A program made the translations under genes and the position numbers. Below are positions 7,253 to 23,956 of a DNA stretch of 64,000 bases, piece after piece. Under the pieces are notes generated by a model. That model ran no database searches. It had not been told where the DNA came from and worked only from the letters and a program-made list of their open reading frames with translations. Origin of the DNA: Candidatus Poribacteria bacterium (GTDB lineage Bacteria > Poribacteria > WGA-4E > PCPOR2b); contig OZ242326.1 of NCBI GenBank assembly GCA_965208325.1, positions 3,072,001-3,136,000 of the forward strand, given 5' to 3'. Each line of letters starts with the position of its first letter. The first letter of the stretch is position 1.

Positions 7253-7534
7253 ATGGATATTGGAAAAATCATCGGAACTGTAGTTGCCACTCAAAAAGAC
7301 CCGAGCTTAACCGGGACGCGGCTGCTAGTTGTACAACCTCTCGATGCGAACGGCAAATCTGTGGCATCCCCCCTTATCGCGGTTGACCCGCACGGCGCCG
7401 CCGGCTATGGCGATACCATCTATATGGTCACGGGCGGTGACGCCATTGGCGTAATGTCGGGGCGTGAAATGCCCGTCGACGTTGCTGTTGTCGGAATCGT
7501 GGATTCCATGACCGTAGCAAAAGCAGAGGATTGA
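7253..7534 (+). CDS. eutN: EutN/CcmL microcompartment vertex (BMC-P) protein
   Basis: IGKIIGTVVATQKDPSLTGTRLLVVQP...AVD..G...DVAVVGIVD. Confidence 0.93.
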   Translation: MDIGKIIGTVVATQKDPSLTGTRLLVVQPLDANGKSVASPLIAVDPHGAAGYGDTIYMVTGGDAIGVMSGREMPVDVAVVGIVDSMTVAKAED

Positions 7535-7536
7535 GG

Positions 7537-7833
7537 ATGTATATCGCAGAAGTAATCGGTAAGATTGTCTCGGTGATTAAACACTCTGCTTACGAGAATC
7601 GAACCCTATTACTCATTCAACCTTTGAATTTAGAATCCAAACCCGTCAAAACCCCGACAATCGCTGTTGATTACGTCGGAGCCGGCGAAGGCGACATCGT
7701 CCTCGTTGGGGCAGGGCCGGGCGTGGCTCAGGAGGTCTTTGGCGTCCAAGATGCACCGATTAGAGAACTTGTAATGGGCATTATTGATCGATTTGACGTT
7801 GATGCAATTGACGCAACCGGGTACAAAAGTTAG
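7537..7833 (+). CDS. eutN: EutN/CcmL microcompartment vertex (BMC-P) protein, second paralog
   Basis: AEVIGKIVSVIKH...LLLIQP...IAVDYVGAGEGDIVLV...MGIID. Confidence 0.92.
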   Translation: MYIAEVIGKIVSVIKHSAYENRTLLLIQPLNLESKPVKTPTIAVDYVGAGEGDIVLVGAGPGVAQEVFGVQDAPIRELVMGIIDRFDVDAIDATGYKS

Positions 7834-7963: not shown

Positions 7964-8731
7964 TTGTTAATTCCATTGCCCAGTCCGCCTCGGGCGGAAA
8001 AATCTTCTAAACTACCTAGCGCAGTGCAGTTGTTAATTGCTGCCAATATCCTCGTTTTTGCGTGTCAGCTCTATTATTGGCATTATCGCGGCTTGAATCT
8101 CTCTTTACATTTCGGCGCTATACCCCAAAGGATTAGCGAATTTATCCTCGTTTTTCCGCAATTGCCGGACTTATCGCGTCCAACCCTAATCACCTCACTA
8201 TTTCTGCACGATACATATAACCTCCAAGGGGGCTTCGTCCATCTCATAGGTAATATGCTGTATCTCTCGGCGTTCGGCCCCAATCTTGAGAATGCAATTG
8301 GACGAATGAAATTCTTCTTTTTTTATCTGCTATGCGGGGTGTCAGCCACTCTCTTGTACGTTGTATTTCACTACAACTCCGACGTACCACTGATCGGCGC
8401 GAGCGGCGCAATTGCCGGCGTGATGGGCGCCCACCTTTTCGCTCGCCCCAAATCCCGTATTCGATGTCTGTTTCTAATTTATATCGTCTCATTGCCGGCA
8501 ATTGTTGTGCTTGTCCCTTGGATACTAGTGCAATTGTTTAATTTTGTTTATCTTTCATCTCAAGATGCTGCAGTGGCTTGGTTGGCGCACATCGGCGGTT
8601 TTTTGGCAGGAATCTTTCTAATAGGCAAATTCCAAATGTCTTGGCGGCCGCCTCGAAAACATGAGACCGCCAATAGCCTAAACCATACATATTCAAATTC
8701 CAATGTCCCTTTGATGAAGATTGGACGCTGA
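7964..8731 (+). CDS. Rhomboid family intramembrane serine protease
   Basis: SLFLH, HLIGNMLYL, GASG (catalytic Ser), AHIGG (catalytic His). Confidence 0.92.
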   Translation: MLIPLPSPPRAEKSSKLPSAVQLLIAANILVFACQLYYWHYRGLNLSLHFGAIPQRISEFILVFPQLPDLSRPTLITSLFLHDTYNLQGGFVHLIGNMLYLSAFGPNLENAIGRMKFFFFYLLCGVSATLLYVVFHYNSDVPLIGASGAIAGVMGAHLFARPKSRIRCLFLIYIVSLPAIVVLVPWILVQLFNFVYLSSQDAAVAWLAHIGGFLAGIFLIGKFQMSWRPPRKHETANSLNHTYSNSNVPLMKIGR

Positions 8732-8854
8732 CCGTTCAAACCGTTCATCATCTCTTCACTGCAACAGAAAACAATGCCATCGGACATTTCATCGTTCCAA
8801 CTGCATGGCGCGATTGGAAAAACCGTAACTTACAAAATATAGGAGACCGATGAA

Positions 8855-10048
8855 TTGACAGGTAATTATCGACATCTGCTTTTGGGGCTGTCGCTTTGTG
8901 TATTTTTGACATCTTTTGCCGTGCGTGATAGTGCAGCCCGCCCGGAGTTTGCAGCGCGGGAAGATAAGGATTGTATTTTCTGCCATATCGATCCCGCTGG
9001 CGGCGGCCCGCGCAACGCTGTCGGACAAGTTTTTGAAGAAAATTACTTCGAGTTCCCTCAAGATTTCGACCCCGAGTCGTTAATGGCTGAGGCGAAAGAA
9101 ATCGCGCAAAGGCTAACAACCGCAGTGGACATTCGCACCGCTTACATCAAGACGACCGATGTCGTTCACGAAGAGGAGATGCTCGCCAACTGTACCTCAT
9201 GCCACTCCTCCGTTGATAGCTTCTTGATGATGCAGGGGGAACTAACCGTCAACGCAGAGGCGTCCGATAAACTCAGATTGACCCTGTCCAACAACTTAGG
9301 CGCAATGCTCAACGCTTTTGCCACCGTCGATGCAATTCCCGAACACCTCTACGTTAAAGTCGGCCAATTCCGAATTCCGTTCGGCCTCAAACAAAAAGAC
9401 CATAACATTCTCGTTAAAGGCGGATACAATCTTGGATCGAACAAACGGGAGGTTGGGATTGAATTCGGCGGTTCATACGGCGGCTTATTCTATAACGCAG
9501 CCGTATTCAACGGTGGAAACGCGACAATCTTCTCCGGCGGCCGCTCAGCCGATGTGGATGAAAACCACCACAAGGCGTGGGTTGCGACTGCGGGCGGCAA
9601 CGTGGGTCCGCTGCGCGCGGGTGTTTCCTATCTGCGCAATAAATCGCGGGATCAGCGCAGCATGACCGTTGGTACGTTTCTGACCGCGGTTCACAAAGAC
9701 TTGGTTCTCGAAGGGGAATTCAATTTTGGCGGAAACTTCCGGGACGGTGAGAGTATCAGTTTCGGGGATGAGGACATTGACTCCAAAGGCTACTATGTCG
9801 GCGCCAAATATCATTTGAGGCGGGGGCTAGTATTGTCGGGCCGCTACGGCCTGTTTGATTCAAATCGAAGGATATTAGGAGATGCCCAACAGCGTGTAAC
9901 AATCGCCGCACAATACACGTTTATGAAGAGTGGTTCCCTTGAGTTGCTCTATTGGCTCAACATTGAGAATGAGAACCGGACCGATAATAATTCACGGCAA
10001 CTTCGAGGCGTAGATCAGCTAATTTTAATGTCCCACTTCTGGTTCTAA
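8855..10048 (+). CDS. Fused c-type cytochrome / outer-membrane beta-barrel (Cyc2-like) with two CxxCH motifs
   Basis: Signal peptide; ARPEFAAREDKDCIFCH; second CTSCH; porin-like YVKVGQFRIPFG and alternating beta-strands; C-terminal HFWF. Confidence 0.75.
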   Translation: MTGNYRHLLLGLSLCVFLTSFAVRDSAARPEFAAREDKDCIFCHIDPAGGGPRNAVGQVFEENYFEFPQDFDPESLMAEAKEIAQRLTTAVDIRTAYIKTTDVVHEEEMLANCTSCHSSVDSFLMMQGELTVNAEASDKLRLTLSNNLGAMLNAFATVDAIPEHLYVKVGQFRIPFGLKQKDHNILVKGGYNLGSNKREVGIEFGGSYGGLFYNAAVFNGGNATIFSGGRSADVDENHHKAWVATAGGNVGPLRAGVSYLRNKSRDQRSMTVGTFLTAVHKDLVLEGEFNFGGNFRDGESISFGDEDIDSKGYYVGAKYHLRRGLVLSGRYGLFDSNRRILGDAQQRVTIAAQYTFMKSGSLELLYWLNIENENRTDNNSRQLRGVDQLILMSHFWF

Positions 10049-10128
10049 AGTAGCATCCACACGCCGTATGCCGTAGACCGCATTACGTAATTATTTTCAT
10101 CATTCCAAATATAAAGAAAGGATTAATT

Positions 10129-10461
10129 ATGTCTGTTGCGCTACGTATTCACAATCGCCGGTTAAAACTTAAGATGACGCAGACCCAGCTCGCGCAGAAA
10201 GCGAATCTGACACCTGCGGCAATATCCCAGTTTGAATCCGGCACACGTAAGCCGTCATTCGATACACTTTCAAGTTTAGCCGATGCCCTGAAAGTTACTA
10301 CCGACTATCTACTCGGCAAAAAGGAACAAGGCTACGACGACCTTTTAGCCGATCCGAAAGTCAGCATCATGTTTCGCGGCATCATGGAATTCCCCGAGAA
10401 AGACAAAGAGACGATGTTTGAATTTTATGAATTTCTCAAAGCTAAAAATGAAAGTGAGTGA
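10129..10461 (+). CDS. XRE-family HTH transcriptional regulator
   Basis: MTQTQLAQKANLTPAAISQFESGTRKPS...LADALKVTTDYLLG. Confidence 0.93.
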   Translation: MSVALRIHNRRLKLKMTQTQLAQKANLTPAAISQFESGTRKPSFDTLSSLADALKVTTDYLLGKKEQGYDDLLADPKVSIMFRGIMEFPEKDKETMFEFYEFLKAKNESE

Positions 10462-11318
10462 AGCAAAGTATTTGCGGACTGAAGATGGCTGGACGAAATT
10501 CCCTTAACTGGTCTAACGTTGCACACGGGCTGTCATACAATTCTCGTCATCCCGCTGAATGTGCGCGTCGCTTGCTGCAAGAGTTAAACATTCATGCCCT
10601 ACCGATTCAGCCCCAAAATATTGCCAAAAAACTTGAGATTGTCATCTGGGAACGCGACATGGAAAGCCAATATGACGGCTGCCTAATGCGGGTCGGAGAT
10701 ACCTGGGGCATACTCATCAACAGCCAGATTCAGTCTCAATCCAGAAAAAGGTTCACTATCGCTCACGAATTGGGGCACTATCACCTGGATCGGGAGGCAA
10801 CCGGAGATCGGCGCTGCCGCGGAGGCGAACTAGGCTTCTTTAACGCACGCGGCCCGGAAGAGCAGCGCGCTAACCAGTTTGCCGTTGAGTTATTGATGCC
10901 ATCCCCGTTTTTTCAGGAGGACGCCGAGAATCTGCCGAACGTCGGCCTAGCCGCAATTGACGCACTCTCCGCCCGTTACGCCACTTCCCTTACCAGCACG
11001 GCAATTCGCTACACCCGATTGAGCCCGCATAATTGCGCTATCGTGTTCTCCGAAAATCGACAAATTAAATATTTCGCCTATTCAGATGACTTTCGCCGAA
11101 ATAGCGACTGTTACCTTGTTAAAAACAAGCCGCTTCACCCGGAGGCGTTGGCATCTTCCCTCGCTGATACCTCGCTTAATGAAACTAGGGACAAACGGGG
11201 GAAGGTGCCCCTGTCATGCTGGTGTCCCGCAAAATCAGACCGGCTAATTATCGAGCATTCTCGCTTCCTGCCCCGCATTAACAAGGTGGTCTCTTTCCTT
11301 TGGATTCCGCAGGATTGA
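10458..11318 (+). CDS. ImmA/IrrE family metallopeptidase
   Basis: RKRFTIAHELGH and ExxANQFAVELLMP; overlaps the XRE stop (GTGA). Confidence 0.92.
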   Translation: MKQSICGLKMAGRNSLNWSNVAHGLSYNSRHPAECARRLLQELNIHALPIQPQNIAKKLEIVIWERDMESQYDGCLMRVGDTWGILINSQIQSQSRKRFTIAHELGHYHLDREATGDRRCRGGELGFFNARGPEEQRANQFAVELLMPSPFFQEDAENLPNVGLAAIDALSARYATSLTSTAIRYTRLSPHNCAIVFSENRQIKYFAYSDDFRRNSDCYLVKNKPLHPEALASSLADTSLNETRDKRGKVPLSCWCPAKSDRLIIEHSRFLPRINKVVSFLWIPQD

Positions 11319-17389: not shown

Positions 17390-20300
17390 TCACTGAAATT
17401 CGCCGCGCACCGTCACGGAACTCGCAATTGATAAGAAATCCCGCCCCTCCTCGACATGGTCGTTGTTATAGCTGAGGCCGAGGTTCAAATTCGCAGTCAG
17501 GCGGGTGCTTAGGTTGTACCGCGTTCGTAACGTCGTCTCGTATCGTTCCGATCTCTCCTCCCGATTCTTGCCATAGTTCTCCCGGCGGATAACCGTAGAC
17601 AACGTATTCGTGAGATCCAAATCGTGCTTGAGAGGGATTCGCCCGAGAATCGGTATTGGAAGACCTCCCTCTAAACGCAGCTTGTAATCAATGCTGAGAT
17701 TCGGCGTGATTATCAACGCCGAACTGTCAATTCCGCCGCCGCGTACCTGGTCTCGCATTGTCATGCGCACACCGAGCGCGCCCCTCGTTGAAGCACCCAG
17801 CGACTGGCTCCAACTGACGGACGGTTCTTGTGAGACACTCTCGTTAATAGTTGTATTGATGTTACTCTGATCCCGCTGCGTATGCCGGTATCTTAGCTGA
17901 AAGCTGGAGTTGGCATTAAACAGCTTGAGATTTCCTTCGTAGCTTACGGTTAGGTTGTCAGACGAAGTGCTTAGCGATTTCGTAAAACCCTTGCTCCGGG
18001 AGACGTTTGTGCCGAGCGACACCCATGACCATGGATCGACCGAAGTGCGAAATCCATACCGGTTTCGCTGCCGAGATTGGCTGCGCTCCGGTGTGTCGGC
18101 TGGTAGTTCCAGAATATCTCGAATTGAGGTTCCCGGTGCCAGTCGCTGAAGGGAGTCTTGCGTATCAAAACTAACATCAGCGTTTAACGCAAGACTCTCC
18201 ATGCTTCGACGAAGTAGACCGAATTGGCCATCACCCTGTTTGCCCTGCCTCTCCTTCAGCTTGCGCTCTAGTTCAGCTTTGTCTCGGGAAATCCAATCTC
18301 CCCTTTGGCTCTCTGCCTCTTCGAGCATGTCCATATCAACGTCCATACGCTCCAGCCGATCCAGCTCGCGTTGCCGTTTCTCTTCGAGTTGTATTTCTTC
18401 TTCAAAGCTGTCGAGTGTCTCTTGGCTTTTGTCCTTCAAATCTATCGCCTTCTCTGTTTGTTTAGAACCATGGAAGTCTATCGCACTCCCTATTCGTTCG
18501 CTTGATCCCTCCCTATTCGGTCTGTCGATCCCGTCCCCAATCGTATCAGTATTCGGCTCTCGGAACAGCCATCCAAACCATACTCTTGGGCGCATGCTAA
18601 GCCCAAAGCGTATATTCGCGTTGATTCGGGCGTTCTTCTGGTCGCGAAACCAGTCTTCACGGAAACTGATGCGGTTGCTGATTGTTGGACGAACGCCAAA
18701 AAAATCGCGGTTCAAACGCGGGTTCAAAGACAGCCGATGTTCACGGCCGCCGATGGTAAACTCCGATTTGGTTTCGGTTGACTCAGGTTCATCCGTAACG
18801 GTTAGGTCGGTTGTTACCGGCGTTGTTTGGAACGGTGTTCCAAAACTAGCCGAACCGAATCCACTTGAGCGATTCAGATTATCGTCGCGCCTTTCGAGCG
18901 TACGGCTAACCTCGTATGTCGGATTCAGGCTAAAACTTGCAACCGGACTGATATTGATTGAAATCGAACCGCTGTCAACTTTCTCGTCTCGGTTACGCCC
19001 ATAACCATAACCAAAAGATGAAAAACTGCTGCCGCCAGACTCTGTTGCCGTTAATGGATCGACCTCAACATCTTCGTGTCGGTACTGCACATCAAGCCCA
19101 AAGATTTGGCCAAGTCCGTATCGGAATGTGGATGTGTAGAGATTGCTAACCTCAGTCCCCTGGCGTTCGTTCCAGAAATTCTGTCGATTGTATGCAAAAC
19201 CTAAGGCAGGCACGAATCGGTGCGGACTAAAGCGCGCAGACAGATCACGGTTATGCGTTCTGCTTTTCCCGCTTTGAAAGGTGCTAAATGATCCGCGGCG
19301 GCTCTCCGTCTCAGATTCCTGTTCGCGGATGGAGTAGGTAATTGGCAGCCAGCGGAAAAGATGAAGATCGGCATCAACATTGTAATCGTTGCTGGTGGTG
19401 CTAAACCCTAGATCCTGCCGGCGTTGACGCCCTGTTTGTCCGGATGAACTTTCAAAATCCTTGTCCTGTCTTGCAAATCCGCCGCGGACACTGAGAAAAG
19501 GGCCAAGTTCTATAGACATGTTGGCGCGCCGCGCCCAGCCCGACCGTACAAGCGGATCACTCAAGTGGATTTCGTTTACCCAAACTTCCCCGCCAACCTC
19601 ATATTCCGTGTCGTTGCGAATGCCGACCAAAATTCCGCCAATGCTCTTAATTGAGAGTTGCGTACTGTTTGTACCACGGACGGCAAACCCATCCGGATGG
19701 CCGTCGGTTTCGTTTGTATCGACCGGCTCATTCATCTCCCCCTCAATGGTGTCAAGTGATTCTTCCTCCTGTGCCGCAGGTAGGTTTAAATCTGGGTACT
19801 CATTCCGTTTCACATCCTCCAGATCGATTTCTATCAGCTCCCATCCCTCAAAATCAATCACGCGCGTATATTCATAAAAGTCGTTAAGATTCTCAAAGAT
19901 ATTCACCCCTTCCTCCGGTTCCCGACTCGGTTCATCAAAGGACCCCGATGAATAAAAGGACGATCGGTAATTGGTGCGAATGCTCGGCGCCAGCCGCATC
20001 ACAAACGTGGAGTAACTCTTGTCGCCGTAAATCCACAGCTTGAGTTTATCATGTTTTGAGAAATCTTGGCCCTCGCCCTGCCGAAGACCCCGCAACTTTT
20101 GCGAAGTAACCCCGAAAGAACCCGGTAGTAAATTGTAGGTTAAAGTCAGCGTTTGTTCGCGCTGTTCCTGTTGGAATCCAAAAACACTGCTCGAAACAAA
20201 CGGATGGAGTTTCTTAAATGCCTTGTTGTCTTTAATCTGGTCGTAGGCATCTTGATAATCATCAAAGTTATAGTTGTCTTTCGTGGCAACAGTAAACACT

Positions 20301-23300
20301 TCTGCCGTCTCAGTTACAACGTTTCCCTGCTGAGTGACAACACCCTGTTGCCATTGGTTTCCTACGAGCTCGATTGAAGCCCACTCAAAAGCCCCATTAA
20401 CAGTGCCGGGGCGGTTCTTCCGCAGCCAAAAACGCAGGTGTTGCACAAACCCCAAGTTTGGGAGACGGCTACCCGCAGACGCCGCTTCCCGCAGCGGAAT
20501 GCTCAGGAATGTCCAACCGCTCTGGTTACGTTTCTTGACCCACTCCTCCGGAATATCGTTCAAGGGGATGGCAATCTCAAGGTAGGCGTCGATTGTGTCC
20601 AGAACCCCGTCGCCGTTCAAATCTTCAGTATCGAACTCTTTATTGTCCGCGCCAACCCGCCTCGGCTGGAGAGTAGCATTGTAATCCCATCCTTCATCTT
20701 CGCCGGTATCTAGCGACCCATTCGCACTGAATTTCTGAGAAGGGGGTAAATTTTCCAAATCTAGGTCAAGCGTATCAACTTTCCCGTCCCCGTTAGTATC
20801 TTCCAGACTCTTCGGAAGGTCTTCGGAATCAAGTCGGTTGTCAAAATCGCTGTCCTCGCTGACAACACCGAGATCGAGATATAACGTAACATCATCATCG
20901 CCGCGCACACGCAACCAAATTTCTAACGCCTCTCGATCGGAAAAATCAGCCCCAGAAGCTGATAGTCCATAAGAAAATCCACCCCATTCTTCAATGACAT
21001 CCGTAAAATCATACCCGACCTCCATCACAAGACGCTGCTCCGTCGATAGTGCGAAAGGGTTAATGGAGGATGCCGGTACGTCACGGTTCCGCATGTAATT
21101 GCCGACAGCCTTGGAATCGTCTTTATCTCTTAGCAGGACGCGAAAGAGCGCGCGATTCTCCGGTGTCAATTCCTCTATGAAGGGCGGACTGCAAACCCGC
21201 CAACTATGCTTAAACGTAGACACGCTTGTCGCCTCTCTCGCGCCTTCCATGCTATCAATTAACGCGACTCCTACGCTGTTGGGGTTGTTATGGGAGAATG
21301 CTGTCTCGCCGCTGAAATCAATCGACAGTGGAAAGTGCTTCACGGTAACAAAAGGCATTGGATTGAACAGCCATGCAAGGTTGAAGCTACGCCCGAAGCT
21401 CGTATTGACGTTGAAAGCTTGCAGACGATTCGGCGCATCGTTCACATCAGGAATACGGCTCGGCTTCTGCCCTGTATTCAGAATATAGCCCGTTGACAGG
21501 CTAAATCCCTTTCGGAATACCGGGTTAAAATACGAACTTGCGCCCGTGTAAAGCCGCCGCCGGGAACGTCCGCCCAAGCTTGAGTAATCGCTGCCAAATC
21601 CGCCTCCAAAACCGCCGCGACCGAATTGATTGCCAAAACCGCCAAAGGAGGTTCCCTTCCCAAAGCTATTGCTCTCTTCGCGTCTATCAAGACCGCCGCC
21701 TAACCGGTCAAATCGATTAGATTGATCTTCCTCGGCGGGCGTCTTCGACTTGGGAACGTAAGCGTATTCCAACCATACGCCAGCGACGGTTTGCTGCAAC
21801 GCGCTGCCGAAAGGCGTGCGCTCAAATTCAACCTCGATCTCGTCATATTCATCAAGCTTGGTAAAGAAGCGCAGGCTCCCCACCTCATAAATCATTGTGT
21901 AATCAATATCACGCTGTAGCAGCCGATTGTTAAGGCGCACCTTTTCGCTGCCGGGAATCACAAAGAGACCCACGTTGTAAGTTTCGGATTGGTAGGCGTA
22001 GTCGCACACTATTGTGTACACCTGATCACTGGGACGCGGGTTTTCGAGGTAAATCAGTTCGTTGTTCAGTTGCTCACGGAACGGGTAGTACGGGCTTGCC
22101 GGTTCTTCGATTACAAACGGCCGCAAGCTGGGAAAGATTAGAAGGCCGCGGTCAAAATCAATAAACTCCGGATCTACAACACCATCCCCGTTCCTGTCTA
22201 GTCCAAAGATTTGAATATAAGGAGTCGGTCCGTCAGGTGTATCGAACGCTTCACTGCCGCCCTGCTGCCAGATTGCAATCTGATAATCGCGAGGGTTGAT
22301 ATTTCGGTTGCCGAGGCTGTACACACGGCGCGCTTCAGTGCCGCGCAAACTTTTTTCTTTGAGGACGACGTAACCAACTTCTTCGCCCTCTTCATCAATC
22401 GAACCATCGCCGTTTTCATCTTCAAAGACATTACCCGGTTTCCCTACAACGCCTCCGCCATCCCCTAGATACTCATAGGCAACGACAATTCGGTAACTTG
22501 GTGAAATTTGCGTTAGGAATTCAATCTCTCCAGTTTCATAATCGATGTTATAGTCCTGGCCCGGGAATTGGAGGTTGAAATATCCCTGCACCGTCCGCTG
22601 GCCGCCTTGATTGTTGCCCGCAACGTTATCATCAATGTAAATTTCTTCGCTCCCTTTTTTTATTGGAGGATAGGAGCCGTGGAGGAGGCCGTCTTCTCCC
22701 AGTGAGATTGAGTAGAAACGCTCTTTTACGTAGTTTGCATCCGGAATCTGAACGCCTCCGCCATACCCCGAACCCGCACGCCTTGATTGTCCGCTGAAGC
22801 GGCGTGTCTCGGATATGCCTTTGCTGCGTGAACCAAACGCCGTCATTTTGACATCACCCAACGCCGCCACAGCTTCGAGCCCGAATAAATTCCGGTTGAC
22901 GTTCAGGAAACGAGTGTTTGGCAAATTCAGCGTAATATCGCCGAAAGAGAGTGTTTTGAGGATGCTGTCGTGTCCGCCCTCGTACCACACGCGAATTTTC
23001 TGTTCCTTTGCACCGCCGAATCCGCCGCTGTAGCCTCCATAGCCGCCATAACCGCCACCGAATGCATCACCGGAATCGCTATAATCAACCTCGACGTGTG
23101 TATGTTCCCCGACTCGACCGTGCAGGCCGACTTGAAGGGTTTGTCGGATAGTCGGTCCGGAGGCGCGGGGTACACCCCCAAAACGGGTCGTTCCAAAACC
23201 CCCGCCGAACCCACTGCCGTAACCGCCGCCGTAGCCGGTACTCCCATAGCCTCCGCCGAACCCACCCCCGAAATCGTCATAGCTGTCGTAGCCGTAAGAA

Positions 23301-23956
23301 GAGGTCAGTCCGAGATCCAGCCCAGAACCGAAACCGCCCTGGTACCCGCCCCCGAAGCGGTTAATGTCGCCCTGGCCGAAGTAGTGCGTATGATTCATTT
23401 CAACAGTTACCGATTTGTGTCCTGTAATCTGCAAAGTAGAATTCAGAGGCAGTACCAACCCTTTCTCTTCCTTTCCTGGCTCGTCATCGCGCAGTCGGTA
23501 CAAATCTCGAGGTTTAATCGCGAAGGGAGAATCCTTCCACCGCCGCAGCGCTTCAAGGTATGGCGTCACCATCTCTAGGGACGGATCTTCTTCCGGTGTG
23601 GACTCGAGTCCTGTATCCACTTTCCATGGATCGGCCCATTTTTTGCGCGGGGTTTTATGCTTTCTGAAAAAATCGAGAGCGGGCGCCTTACTTTCCGAAG
23701 ATGATTCAAATTTCTGCTTCACCGACTCATCAGAATCCTCTTCTACAAAGGTCTGTGAAGTGCCCTCAGATGCCTCCGCTCTGTCCTTTGGCGGCACCGT
23801 TCGGAGTTCCAAATAGCGATGGGTTAAGGCAGCATCTTTGCGGACAGGTTCCGCCTGGACGCGGGTGATAGAAGAGATAATTAAAATCACTCCGGAAGCG
23901 ATAAGCGTGAAGCGCGGAACGGAACGTACCGTGATGGGATTTGTTTTAGACTTCAT
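17390..23956 (-). CDS. SprA/Sov-like very large outer-membrane protein
   Basis: 2188 aa; FGDITLNLP...LFG, GSEKVRLNNRLLQRDIDY, DSMEGA, DLGVVSED, DTEDLNGDG, GEVWVNEIHL; C-terminal beta-strands ending GEFQ. Confidence 0.72.
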   Translation of the reverse strand: MKSKTNPITVRSVPRFTLIASGVILIISSITRVQAEPVRKDAALTHRYLELRTVPPKDRAEASEGTSQTFVEEDSDESVKQKFESSSESKAPALDFFRKHKTPRKKWADPWKVDTGLESTPEEDPSLEMVTPYLEALRRWKDSPFAIKPRDLYRLRDDEPGKEEKGLVLPLNSTLQITGHKSVTVEMNHTHYFGQGDINRFGGGYQGGFGSGLDLGLTSSYGYDSYDDFGGGFGGGYGSTGYGGGYGSGFGGGFGTTRFGGVPRASGPTIRQTLQVGLHGRVGEHTHVEVDYSDSGDAFGGGYGGYGGYSGGFGGAKEQKIRVWYEGGHDSILKTLSFGDITLNLPNTRFLNVNRNLFGLEAVAALGDVKMTAFGSRSKGISETRRFSGQSRRAGSGYGGGVQIPDANYVKERFYSISLGEDGLLHGSYPPIKKGSEEIYIDDNVAGNNQGGQRTVQGYFNLQFPGQDYNIDYETGEIEFLTQISPSYRIVVAYEYLGDGGGVVGKPGNVFEDENGDGSIDEEGEEVGYVVLKEKSLRGTEARRVYSLGNRNINPRDYQIAIWQQGGSEAFDTPDGPTPYIQIFGLDRNGDGVVDPEFIDFDRGLLIFPSLRPFVIEEPASPYYPFREQLNNELIYLENPRPSDQVYTIVCDYAYQSETYNVGLFVIPGSEKVRLNNRLLQRDIDYTMIYEVGSLRFFTKLDEYDEIEVEFERTPFGSALQQTVAGVWLEYAYVPKSKTPAEEDQSNRFDRLGGGLDRREESNSFGKGTSFGGFGNQFGRGGFGGGFGSDYSSLGGRSRRRLYTGASSYFNPVFRKGFSLSTGYILNTGQKPSRIPDVNDAPNRLQAFNVNTSFGRSFNLAWLFNPMPFVTVKHFPLSIDFSGETAFSHNNPNSVGVALIDSMEGAREATSVSTFKHSWRVCSPPFIEELTPENRALFRVLLRDKDDSKAVGNYMRNRDVPASSINPFALSTEQRLVMEVGYDFTDVIEEWGGFSYGLSASGADFSDREALEIWLRVRGDDDVTLYLDLGVVSEDSDFDNRLDSEDLPKSLEDTNGDGKVDTLDLDLENLPPSQKFSANGSLDTGEDEGWDYNATLQPRRVGADNKEFDTEDLNGDGVLDTIDAYLEIAIPLNDIPEEWVKKRNQSGWTFLSIPLREAASAGSRLPNLGFVQHLRFWLRKNRPGTVNGAFEWASIELVGNQWQQGVVTQQGNVVTETAEVFTVATKDNYNFDDYQDAYDQIKDNKAFKKLHPFVSSSVFGFQQEQREQTLTLTYNLLPGSFGVTSQKLRGLRQGEGQDFSKHDKLKLWIYGDKSYSTFVMRLAPSIRTNYRSSFYSSGSFDEPSREPEEGVNIFENLNDFYEYTRVIDFEGWELIEIDLEDVKRNEYPDLNLPAAQEEESLDTIEGEMNEPVDTNETDGHPDGFAVRGTNSTQLSIKSIGGILVGIRNDTEYEVGGEVWVNEIHLSDPLVRSGWARRANMSIELGPFLSVRGGFARQDKDFESSSGQTGRQRRQDLGFSTTSNDYNVDADLHLFRWLPITYSIREQESETESRRGSFSTFQSGKSRTHNRDLSARFSPHRFVPALGFAYNRQNFWNERQGTEVSNLYTSTFRYGLGQIFGLDVQYRHEDVEVDPLTATESGGSSFSSFGYGYGRNRDEKVDSGSISINISPVASFSLNPTYEVSRTLERRDDNLNRSSGFGSASFGTPFQTTPVTTDLTVTDEPESTETKSEFTIGGREHRLSLNPRLNRDFFGVRPTISNRISFREDWFRDQKNARINANIRFGLSMRPRVWFGWLFREPNTDTIGDGIDRPNREGSSERIGSAIDFHGSKQTEKAIDLKDKSQETLDSFEEEIQLEEKRQRELDRLERMDVDMDMLEEAESQRGDWISRDKAELERKLKERQGKQGDGQFGLLRRSMESLALNADVSFDTQDSLQRLAPGTSIRDILELPADTPERSQSRQRNRYGFRTSVDPWSWVSLGTNVSRSKGFTKSLSTSSDNLTVSYEGNLKLFNANSSFQLRYRHTQRDQSNINTTINESVSQEPSVSWSQSLGASTRGALGVRMTMRDQVRGGGIDSSALIITPNLSIDYKLRLEGGLPIPILGRIPLKHDLDLTNTLSTVIRRENYGKNREERSERYETTLRTRYNLSTRLTANLNLGLSYNNDHVEEGRDFLSIASSVTVRGEFQ

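Follow-up and report, generated by a model that had tools for sequence, protein, structure and literature searches.

In a 64,000-nucleotide (nt) stretch of DNA from Candidatus Poribacteria bacterium (referred to here as the window), we analyzed a gene whose 397-amino-acid (aa) product, the query to which all residue numbers refer, joins an N-terminal module bearing a CxxCH heme attachment motif to a predicted outer membrane (OM) porin barrel and carries a second CxxCH in L1, the loop between the first two barrel strands. Sequence comparisons indicate that the protein is a Poribacteria-specific two-heme derivative of a large, unannotated family of one-heme cytochrome-porins, and we propose, with a probability that we put at roughly 55%, that this two-heme OM protein serves as a short electron conduit through the OM. 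We infer that both sites are occupied by heme, that L1 lies outside the barrel rather than in its lumen, and that the hemes are within tunneling distance of each other; our account of electron flow and its direction, of physical contact with a partner protein, and of the substrate is conditional in the same way.

Conservation, origin, and distribution of the second CxxCH site

The alignments indicate that the second CxxCH is under strong selection and exclude chance, because each of the 121 proteins compared (the query and the 120 homologs, 55 to 94% identical and 366 to 406 aa long, that were listed among 345 found by a word-indexed search) carries the two motifs, as do 80/80 species-level genome loci, in which the motifs lie 72 to 74 residues apart. 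These loci are the best 80 of the 304 species genomes in which a scan of a genome collection with the clade alignment A2 found relatives; 79 carry the title Poribacteria, and the remaining one is titled "uncultured bacterium." The second motif is held by 35 of the 36 rows of A2, and the exception (P0131) has a deletion exactly across the loop. C113, C116, and H117 are found in 100% of 37 two-heme rows and in 0% of one-heme rows. The mean conservation of the core of L1 (aa 111 to 121), calculated from 30 crown-group rows, is 0.82, compared with 0.80 for the strands, 0.83 for the N-terminal module, and 0.88 for L3, whereas the other external loops are less conserved (L4, 0.44; L6, 0.63; L8, 0.62).

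The loop between strands 1 and 2 has a median length of 13 residues in 106 one-heme members (range, 7 to 43) versus 23 residues in the 37 two-heme members (range, 22 to 37). In a FastTree tree of 146 rows, from which the loop columns were excluded and in which Shimodaira-Hasegawa (SH)-like support is local only and the root arbitrary, the two-heme rows and P0131 form one clade (SH-like support of 95) that is nested among one-heme groups, and one gain and one loss of the site therefore account for its occurrence. The second site arose once, as a loop expansion of approximately 10 residues within the one-heme cytochrome-porin family.

Homologs of the query, where named at all, are recorded as "hypothetical protein [Candidatus Poribacteria]." Pfam gave only a subthreshold match to Porin_4 (E 4.7e-5; 23.8 bits against a cutoff of 27), NCBIfam gave no meaningful match, and the PDB sequence set gave none; the matches in the ESM Atlas were unnamed "porin family" clusters only, one of which has Porin_O_P in 20% of its members. 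Neither Pfam nor NCBIfam includes a model for Cyc2, and the PDB sequence set has no Cyc2 chain. An exhaustive search of 50%-identity representatives returned 462 clusters at E ≤ 1e-3, 103 at 1e-10, and 14 at 1e-30, and after removal of 35 fragments shorter than 330 aa from the 150 clusters listed, 115 representatives were retained. One CxxCH is present in 106 of these and two in nine, six of which have the second site at the query position. The representatives P0143, P0173, and P0259, which belong to three unrelated branches, have a different second CxxCH approximately 25 residues past the first, inside the N-terminal module; with these three independent gains, heme number seems to be evolvable within the family. 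A search for longer fused forms (696 to 2000 aa) found none, although this is weak evidence.

The family consensus for the mature N terminus reads A-x-P-x-F-A-A-R-x-G-x-x-C-x-x-C-H-V-x-P-x-G-G-G-x-R-N. Across 146 sequences, C40, C43, H44, G49, and G170 do not vary, and conservation of P30, P47, G51, and R53 is 90% or higher. M126 (127/146), H183 (129/146), and H394 (128/146) are conserved in one- and two-heme members alike; M126 and H183 are lost jointly (17 rows lack both, two lack M126 only, and none lacks H183 only), and H394 varies independently of them. Apart from H117, M392 (92% versus 18%) is the sole Met or His that distinguishes the two-heme clade. M126, H183, H394, and M392 are candidate axial ligands or constituents of a candidate metal site.

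That the second CxxCH binds no heme, and forms instead a disulfide or metal site that stabilizes L1 in what would then be a one-heme cytochrome-porin, strikes us as highly improbable. Heme attachment at this site is predicted only, and no barrel is known to bear a heme on a surface loop, but H117 is invariant along with both cysteines, and a disulfide would not need a histidine. The exact CxxCH spacing at all 80 loci and the independent acquisition of other second motifs by three family members, as expected of an evolvable heme number, also argue for a second heme.

A cytochrome-porin match (E ≤ 1e-10) was found in 161 of the 176 species genomes of the phylum and in 128 of 133 high-quality genomes, mostly as a single copy, and with this near-universal distribution the gene approaches core status in Poribacteria. 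By family, it was found in 28/28 genomes of f1, 11/11 of f2, 7/7 of f3, 109/112 of f4, 1/1 of f7, and 1/1 of f9; the matches in f8 (3/8) were weak, and f5, f6, f10, and f11 together gave 0/7. A search of sequencing runs located the DNA stretch in sponge metagenomes from 12 studies.

Predicted barrel and position of the second site

An AlphaFold2 (AF2) model of the query, built on the 146-row alignment A1 (mean predicted local distance difference test score [pLDDT], 85.8; predicted template modeling score, 0.83), contains 16 strands (aa 87-100, 122-135, 140-147, 150-161, 165-173, 198-208, 211-218, 241-250, 253-263, 267-280, 283-296, 310-322, 325-335, 344-357, 360-370, and 388-396). The turns after even-numbered strands comprise 2 to 4 residues, and long loops follow odd-numbered strands: L1 (21 aa), L3 (24 aa), L4 (aa 219-240, 22 aa), L6 (aa 297-309, 13 aa), and L8 (aa 371-387, 17 aa). 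Short periplasmic turns, long external loops, and an aromatic C-terminal residue (...FWF), as in 16-strand porins, are thus all found in the query; the terminal residue is aromatic or hydrophobic across the 146-member alignment, and the protein ends in SHFWF or SRFWF at 80/80 loci. The modeled pattern of loops and turns is that of a classic porin, in which 16 strands would put both termini in the periplasm, and L1 is for that reason assigned to the cell surface side, by strand parity and loop and turn lengths, according to standard porin topology.

A Foldseek search with the model returned 320 PDB matches at E ≤ 1e-3 (best E, 1e-12), with 16-strand porins in the lead. The best match by VIA-align was OprP (2o4v; Z, 24.6; root mean square deviation, 3.1 Å over 284 residues), and OprO followed with Z values of 24.3 and 24.1; OprP and OprO are tied within 1 Z unit with BpsOmp38, Omp32, and others. 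The query shares with OprP, OprO, and general 16-strand porins (OmpF, OmpC, Omp32, and OmpU) the same fold (Z, 22 to 24.6; root mean square deviation of approximately 3 Å over 270 to 290 residues), the loop and turn pattern, and an L3 with a short helix, and by analogy its L3 is probably an inward-folding constriction loop. Unlike the query, these porins have no heme sites or N-terminal cytochrome module: their matches cover the barrel (aa 85-397), to which the N-terminal module (aa 28-86) is additional. This module is modeled with helices at aa 30-36, 55-62, and 73-82 (pLDDT, 75 to 87).

An earlier note on this DNA, drawn from the sequence alone, had described an open reading frame (ORF) with a signal peptide, PEFA followed by six residues and CIFCH at aa 40-44, a second motif (CTSCH, aa 113-117) at nt 9191, and porin-like strands ending in Phe; it had placed the second motif between two apparent strands (AVDIRTAYIK and FLMMQGELTVNAE), which would put the second heme on outer loop L1, and had proposed structure prediction and homolog alignment as checks. 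Each of the sequence elements was found at these coordinates. Structure prediction yielded a 16-strand barrel with OprP and OprO as the best matches and a C terminus of ...SHFWF, in which strand 1 (aa 87-100) covers AVDIRTAYIK and strand 2 (aa 122-135) is FLMMQGELTVNAE, and the second CxxCH, conserved as detailed above, falls in L1, on the predicted extracellular side.

A different course for L1, which we think unlikely although far from negligible, would be for the loop to fold down into the barrel, with both hemes in the pore and heme 2 stacked near heme 1 in the lumen. Long loops such as L3 do fold into the lumen of general porins, and within the barrel region the model is least certain at L1, where pLDDT blocks of 74 and 67 denote moderate confidence. 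M392, which is specific to two-heme members, lies on the last strand, beside strand 1, and faces the lumen by side-chain alternation; some VIA-align rows start at model residue 29 or 52-53 and, as end points only, hint that the N-terminal module is partly in or at the barrel. Nevertheless, a 16-strand lumen that accommodates L3 and the N-terminal heme module would have little room for a second heme.

A candidate partner cytochrome

Flanking ORFs were called mechanically and clustered de novo across the 80 loci. At 67 of these, the cytochrome-porin gene is preceded on its own strand by a gene of approximately 200 to 300 codons, which starts 481 to 1,960 nt ahead of the cytochrome-porin start. 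This upstream gene occurs within flanks of two unrelated types (MR_MLE...SDR/EngA and MarR-ECF sigma-FtsY). Its product belongs to the Cytochrome_P460 family (PF16694; E 3e-12; 47.5 bits against a cutoff of 27). A single C-terminal CxxCH is present in 67/67 of the partner sequences, and a lipobox pattern, followed by a Pro/Gln/Glu-rich linker of approximately 30 to 150 residues, is present in 62/67. The nearest solved relatives, found by phmmer against the PDB, are cytochromes c'-beta (McCP-beta and that of Thermus; E of approximately 2e-5), with P460 proper at E 0.08. The partner ortholog from the genome of the query was modeled with AF2, at modest quality (mean pLDDT, 68), as a beta-sheet-rich protein, and the top eight rows of a Foldseek search with this model are all c'-beta or P460, none of them at E ≤ 1e-3 (E, 0.09 to 0.36). 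The partner thus resembles cytochromes c'-beta and P460 in its Pfam family, its C-terminal heme motif, and its beta-sheet-rich model and differs from them as a lipoprotein on a long tether whose gene is coupled to that of a cytochrome-porin.

The earlier note had reported that no partner cytochromes are adjacent; this holds for the window and for the three closest genomes but not for most relatives, given the upstream lipoprotein gene at 67/80 loci. In the genome of the query, a single contig (C1) of 4.7 Mb, the lipoprotein ortholog is unlinked to the cytochrome-porin gene (C1:2583530-2584279, minus strand) and has the same FLSC-GDEGE lipobox. A 379-aa membrane protein with two CxxCH motifs is encoded directly downstream of the cytochrome-porin at 19/80 loci, all of one lineage, and its ortholog in the genome of the query, which is 70% identical, is likewise unlinked (C1:415957-417126, minus strand). 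At E ≤ 1e-25, the partner is found in 151 of the 176 genomes of the phylum, and it tracks the cytochrome-porin in f1 (28/28), f2 (10/11), and f4 (108/112).

The neighborhoods of one-heme relatives were surveyed at 80 metagenome loci, in 67 of which the cytochrome-porin ORF was called. A redox neighbor, on the same strand and within 600 nt, is present at 20 of these 67 loci (a cupredoxin at 6 and a CxxCH protein at 15, with both at one); many other one-heme loci have no redox neighbor. The cupredoxin gene lies directly beside the one-heme relative at loci L110, L116, L123, L134, L136, and L141, an arrangement that recalls the pairing of cyc2 with rusticyanin in Acidithiobacillus. P460-like genes beside one-heme relatives were represented by one weak match only in the 80 loci.

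The identity of the partner bears on the possibility, which we judge to be improbable, that the system performs nitrogen oxide chemistry, with the partner binding or converting nitric oxide (NO) or hydroxylamine and the cytochrome-porin admitting the solute and supplying or removing electrons. NO and hydroxylamine are plentiful around ammonia oxidizers in sponges, in whose metagenomes the sequence occurs, and the partner is a member of the Cytochrome_P460 Pfam family with NO-binding c'-beta and hydroxylamine-oxidizing P460 proteins as its nearest solved relatives; its tight pairing, at 67/80 loci of the two-heme clade only, as against one weak match among the one-heme loci, points in the same direction. 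However, catalytic residues such as the lysine cross-link of P460 could not be located in the partner, which is closer to c'-beta than to P460 by the E values given above. Periplasmic P460 enzymes, moreover, need no OM cytochrome, and family f3 has the cytochrome-porin without the partner.

Comparison with Cyc2 and other OM systems

Keffer et al. (2021; PMC8406198) define Cyc2 proteins by a signal peptide, a single CXXCH, the motifs AXPXFAR[Q/K][T/Y] and PXL, an OprO/OprP-like 16-strand barrel, and a minimum length of 365 aa, and they report OprO and OprP as templates for the barrel of Cyc2PV-1. The query resembles Cyc2 of A. ferrooxidans, Mariprofundus Cyc2PV-1, Ghiorsea Cyc2TAG1_1, and Leptospirillum Cyt572 in having a signal peptide, an N-terminal heme c module, a fused 16-strand barrel, and a length of approximately 400 aa; it also keeps AxPxFA...CxxCH...P, with AxPxFA apparently at the same distance from the first Cys, has a barrel closest to OprP and OprO, and has relatives with small periplasmic redox proteins encoded beside them. 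Its 397 aa, 16 strands, and Z of 24.6 against OprP agree with the Cyc2 definition in length and barrel. It differs in its two CxxCH motifs, the second in L1, as opposed to the single CXXCH of Cyc2, and the expression P.FAR[QK][TY] matched none of 116 sequences (the query, which reads A-R-P-E-F-A-A-R-E, and the 115 full-length representatives). PxL is replaced by PxG (H44-I-D-P47-A-G49 in the query; P-x-G-G-G-x-R-N in the family), the conserved partner of the clade has the c'-beta/P460 fold, and the host is a sponge-associated Poribacteria bacterium. Because of the two heme sites, the absence of the motif, and PxG in place of PxL, we do not file the query as Cyc2; by published motifs and heme count, it appears to be a variant of the fused cytochrome-porin kind that lies outside Cyc2 as currently defined. 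The description of the protein as a Cyc2-like cytochrome-porin in the earlier note is therefore borne out in its layout (signal peptide, heme module, and OprP/OprO-like barrel) but not in its motifs, the lack of which also weakens the transfer of Cyc2 function.

We consider it quite improbable that the protein is a genuine Cyc2-type Fe(II) oxidase that draws energy from, or detoxifies, dissolved Fe(II) and in which the second heme merely tunes the first. The Cyc2 architecture, including a barrel of the OprP/OprO kind reported for Cyc2PV-1 (PMC8406198), and the partial retention of AxPxFA...CxxCH...P speak for such an enzyme, as do the heme-copper oxidase encoded in the genome and the cupredoxins or small cytochromes c beside one-heme relatives, which are reminiscent of the position of cyc2 next to rus and cyc1 in Acidithiobacillus (PMC10654088). 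The motif and PxG differences, the occurrence of the sequence in sponge metagenomes rather than in iron habitats, and a conserved partner of the c'-beta/P460 fold rather than a Cyc1- or rusticyanin-type carrier speak against it. FeGenie surveys bear on the question from both sides: an entry of cyc2 [2-3] is tabled for one Poribacteria metagenome-assembled genome (MAG), with the gene not specified, in one report (PMC12482716), whereas another lists cyc2 in six MAGs, with the Poribacteria MAG not among them (PMC10367259). A contig of the latter MAG (L030) carries the query gene at 71% identity, and both of these last points are indirect. Fe(II) as the substrate is a model that would be borrowed from Cyc2 only.

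The MtrCAB, MtoAB, and PioAB systems likewise have hemes in or at an OM barrel and, in MtrC, a lipoprotein cytochrome partner, but their 26-strand barrel sheathes a separate decaheme protein, whereas the query is a single chain with 16 strands and two heme sites. The only sequence link to MtrB is a weak profile match (6r2q_B; E 0.023). Membership of an MtrB/PioB-type complex was rejected, the query being a 16-strand protein with a fused heme module.

Heme supply and respiratory capacity

The genome of the query contains three matches over the cutoff to PF01578 (CcmC/CcmF/CcsA type) and one heme-copper oxidase gene, which lies beside a cytochrome c gene cluster (C1:3417655-3428664). Because PF01578 proteins, the heme-copper oxidase, and cytochromes c are present, heme c proteins can be made and connected to respiration. 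The query has two CxxCH motifs downstream of the signal peptide in a genome with heme attachment genes, as befits a c-type cytochrome, attachment itself being predicted. Genomic ORFs with 11, 8, 8, 6, and 5 CxxCH motifs were also found, and these multiheme proteins and the cytochrome c cluster are possible further parts of an electron transfer network.

Among the side observations, the ORF with 11 CxxCH motifs encodes 860 aa with an MtrC/MtrF-like domain (C1:2973494-2976076; L002), and an 8-heme protein is encoded at C1:864591-865826 (L003). A PF01578 match at C1:136960-137511 (L023) has one in-frame TGA inside the matched stretch. A weak partial match to RuBisCO_large (49 bits; profile positions 14-173) at C1:855049-855525 (L189) lies in a 512-aa open frame, which may encode a RuBisCO-like protein; it was not accepted as a sign of autotrophy, being weak and partial.

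Proposed role

We suggest that the cytochrome c maturation (Ccm) system would load both CxxCH sites with heme in the periplasm, before insertion of the barrel. Electrons would pass between periplasmic carriers and heme 1, which would sit at or within the barrel's periplasmic end, and the likely carrier in Poribacteria would be the c'-beta/P460-fold lipoprotein on its long Pro/Gln/Glu-rich tether, the best candidate on account of the gene pairing; in some lineages, the membrane-bound cytochrome with two CxxCH motifs may join the electron path. Heme 2 on L1 would take the path outward as far as the cell surface, where it would receive electrons from or donate them to the outside and relay them with heme 1. 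The heme module of one-heme Cyc2 is believed to close off the barrel on the periplasmic side, such that Fe2+ must enter the pore (PMC8406198, PMC13692758, and PMC13741234). With a second heme, the external donor or acceptor need not go down the pore, unlike the situation proposed for one-heme Cyc2.

A broader proposal, which we advance only tentatively and regard as possible but doubtful, is that a single-polypeptide two-heme wire with heme c on a surface loop, together with the c'-beta/P460 lipoprotein and, in some lineages, an inner membrane diheme cytochrome, may constitute a phylum-wide trans-envelope redox module by which the sponge-symbiotic Poribacteria exchange electrons with the host matrix or with donors or acceptors outside the cell, the substrate not entering the pore. 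The protein would then be, to our knowledge, the first beta-barrel found to expose a covalently bound heme c on a surface loop.

A number of considerations weigh against the proposed conduit. With heme 1 at the periplasmic mouth and heme 2 atop the barrel, the two may lie too far apart for electrons to tunnel between them in a single step, and L1, for which model confidence is lowest, could fold into the lumen rather than outward. Proteins of the c'-beta/P460 fold generally carry a five-coordinate heme that binds ligands rather than shuttling electrons, and the partner may therefore catalyze a different chemistry. We know of no precedent for the insertion of a barrel with a covalent heme already on a surface loop. 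The link to the partner is not obligatory: in f3, the cytochrome-porin is found in 7/7 genomes and the partner, at E ≤ 1e-25, in 0/7; in genera g25 to g27, the partner is present and the cytochrome-porin absent; and in the genus of the window, the two genes are unlinked. The absence of the canonical Cyc2 motif counts on the same side, as does the search of sequencing runs with the DNA stretch, which returned no RNA data set among its matches.

Features of the gene and its flanks

The gene (Table 1) is present in a single copy in its genome and starts with TTG, a start that fits the homologs, in which the first CxxCH is likewise near aa 40. The putative signal peptide was assigned from a hydrophobic N terminus, an AF2 helix at aa 5-19, low pLDDT at aa 20-28, and the onset of alignment conservation at A28, rather than by a dedicated predictor. 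CIFCH is preceded by A28-R-P-E-F-A33 and six residues and followed by DPAGGGPRNAVGQVF. A promoter and terminator scan of window positions 8500-10300 gave nothing convincing at either end of the gene.

Table 1. Positions in the window of the cytochrome-porin gene and of the segments of its product
Feature	Position (nt)	Strand	Basis or remark
Two-CxxCH cytochrome-porin gene	8855..10048	+	Intact 397-aa ORF, stop codon included
Shine-Dalgarno-like AGGAG	8841..8845	+	9 nt ahead of TTG start; read from sequence
Putative signal peptide, aa 1-27	8855..8935	+	Probable cleavage near DSA/AR
N-terminal heme 1 module, aa 28-86	8936..9112	+	AxPxFA, 6 residues, CIFCH, DPAGGGPRN; three short helices
First CxxCH (CIFCH), aa 40-44	8972..8986	+	Sequence, homolog alignment
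Predicted 16-strand beta-barrel porin domain, aa 87-397	9113..10045	+	AF2, Foldseek, VIA-align
Loop L1, aa 101-121, between strands 1 and 2, with putative second heme site	9155..9217	+	AF2
Second CxxCH (CTSCH), aa 113-117	9191..9205	+	Sequence; clade motif C-x-S-C-H-S-S-[VI]-D
Loop L3, aa 174-197, with conserved PFG...DHN	9374..9445	+	AF2; short helix at aa 186-190
C-terminal SHFWF, aa 393-397	10031..10045	+	OM beta-signal-like end; conserved His at -4

In the window, the cytochrome-porin gene is flanked on one side by a rhomboid protease gene and on the other by a helix-turn-helix (HTH)/M78 pair, with two EutN genes further upstream. The pair directly downstream consists of overlapping HTH_3 (XRE-type; 10129-10461) and Peptidase_M78 (ImmA/IrrE-like; 10458-11318) genes on the plus strand. 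The EutN/CcmL vertex protein genes are tandem and overlapping (7253-7534 and 7531-7833, plus strand; Pfam E of 6.6e-25 and 9.1e-22), and no shell protein gene was seen adjoining them. The rhomboid, EutN, HTH, and M78 genes were rejected as functional partners of the cytochrome-porin, being conserved only in the 3 closest of the 80 loci. Elsewhere in the window, a giant ORF of 2188 aa (17390-23956, minus strand) gave only a weak, subthreshold match to SprA_N (E 5.2e-5).

Implications

Cyc2-type cytochrome-porins are treated as strictly one-heme proteins and are deduced to oxidize only dissolved Fe2+ that enters the pore (PMC8406198 and the 2026 review PMC13741234). A natural two-heme version with an outer-loop site would directly test this logic and would show how a minimal porin-cytochrome extends toward the cell surface. 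A literature search, outside which subscription journals fell, found no description of a two-heme cytochrome-porin or of a pairing of a P460/c'-beta protein with a porin. The protein is a small single chain, and the route of expression in E. coli used for Cyc2 should apply, which makes the question testable. Poribacteria are a major uncultured phylum of sponge symbionts that is regarded as heterotrophic, and the cytochrome-porin is annotated as hypothetical everywhere; should it prove to be an electron conduit, exchange of electrons with the exterior or nitrogen oxide chemistry would have been overlooked as a trait general to these symbionts.

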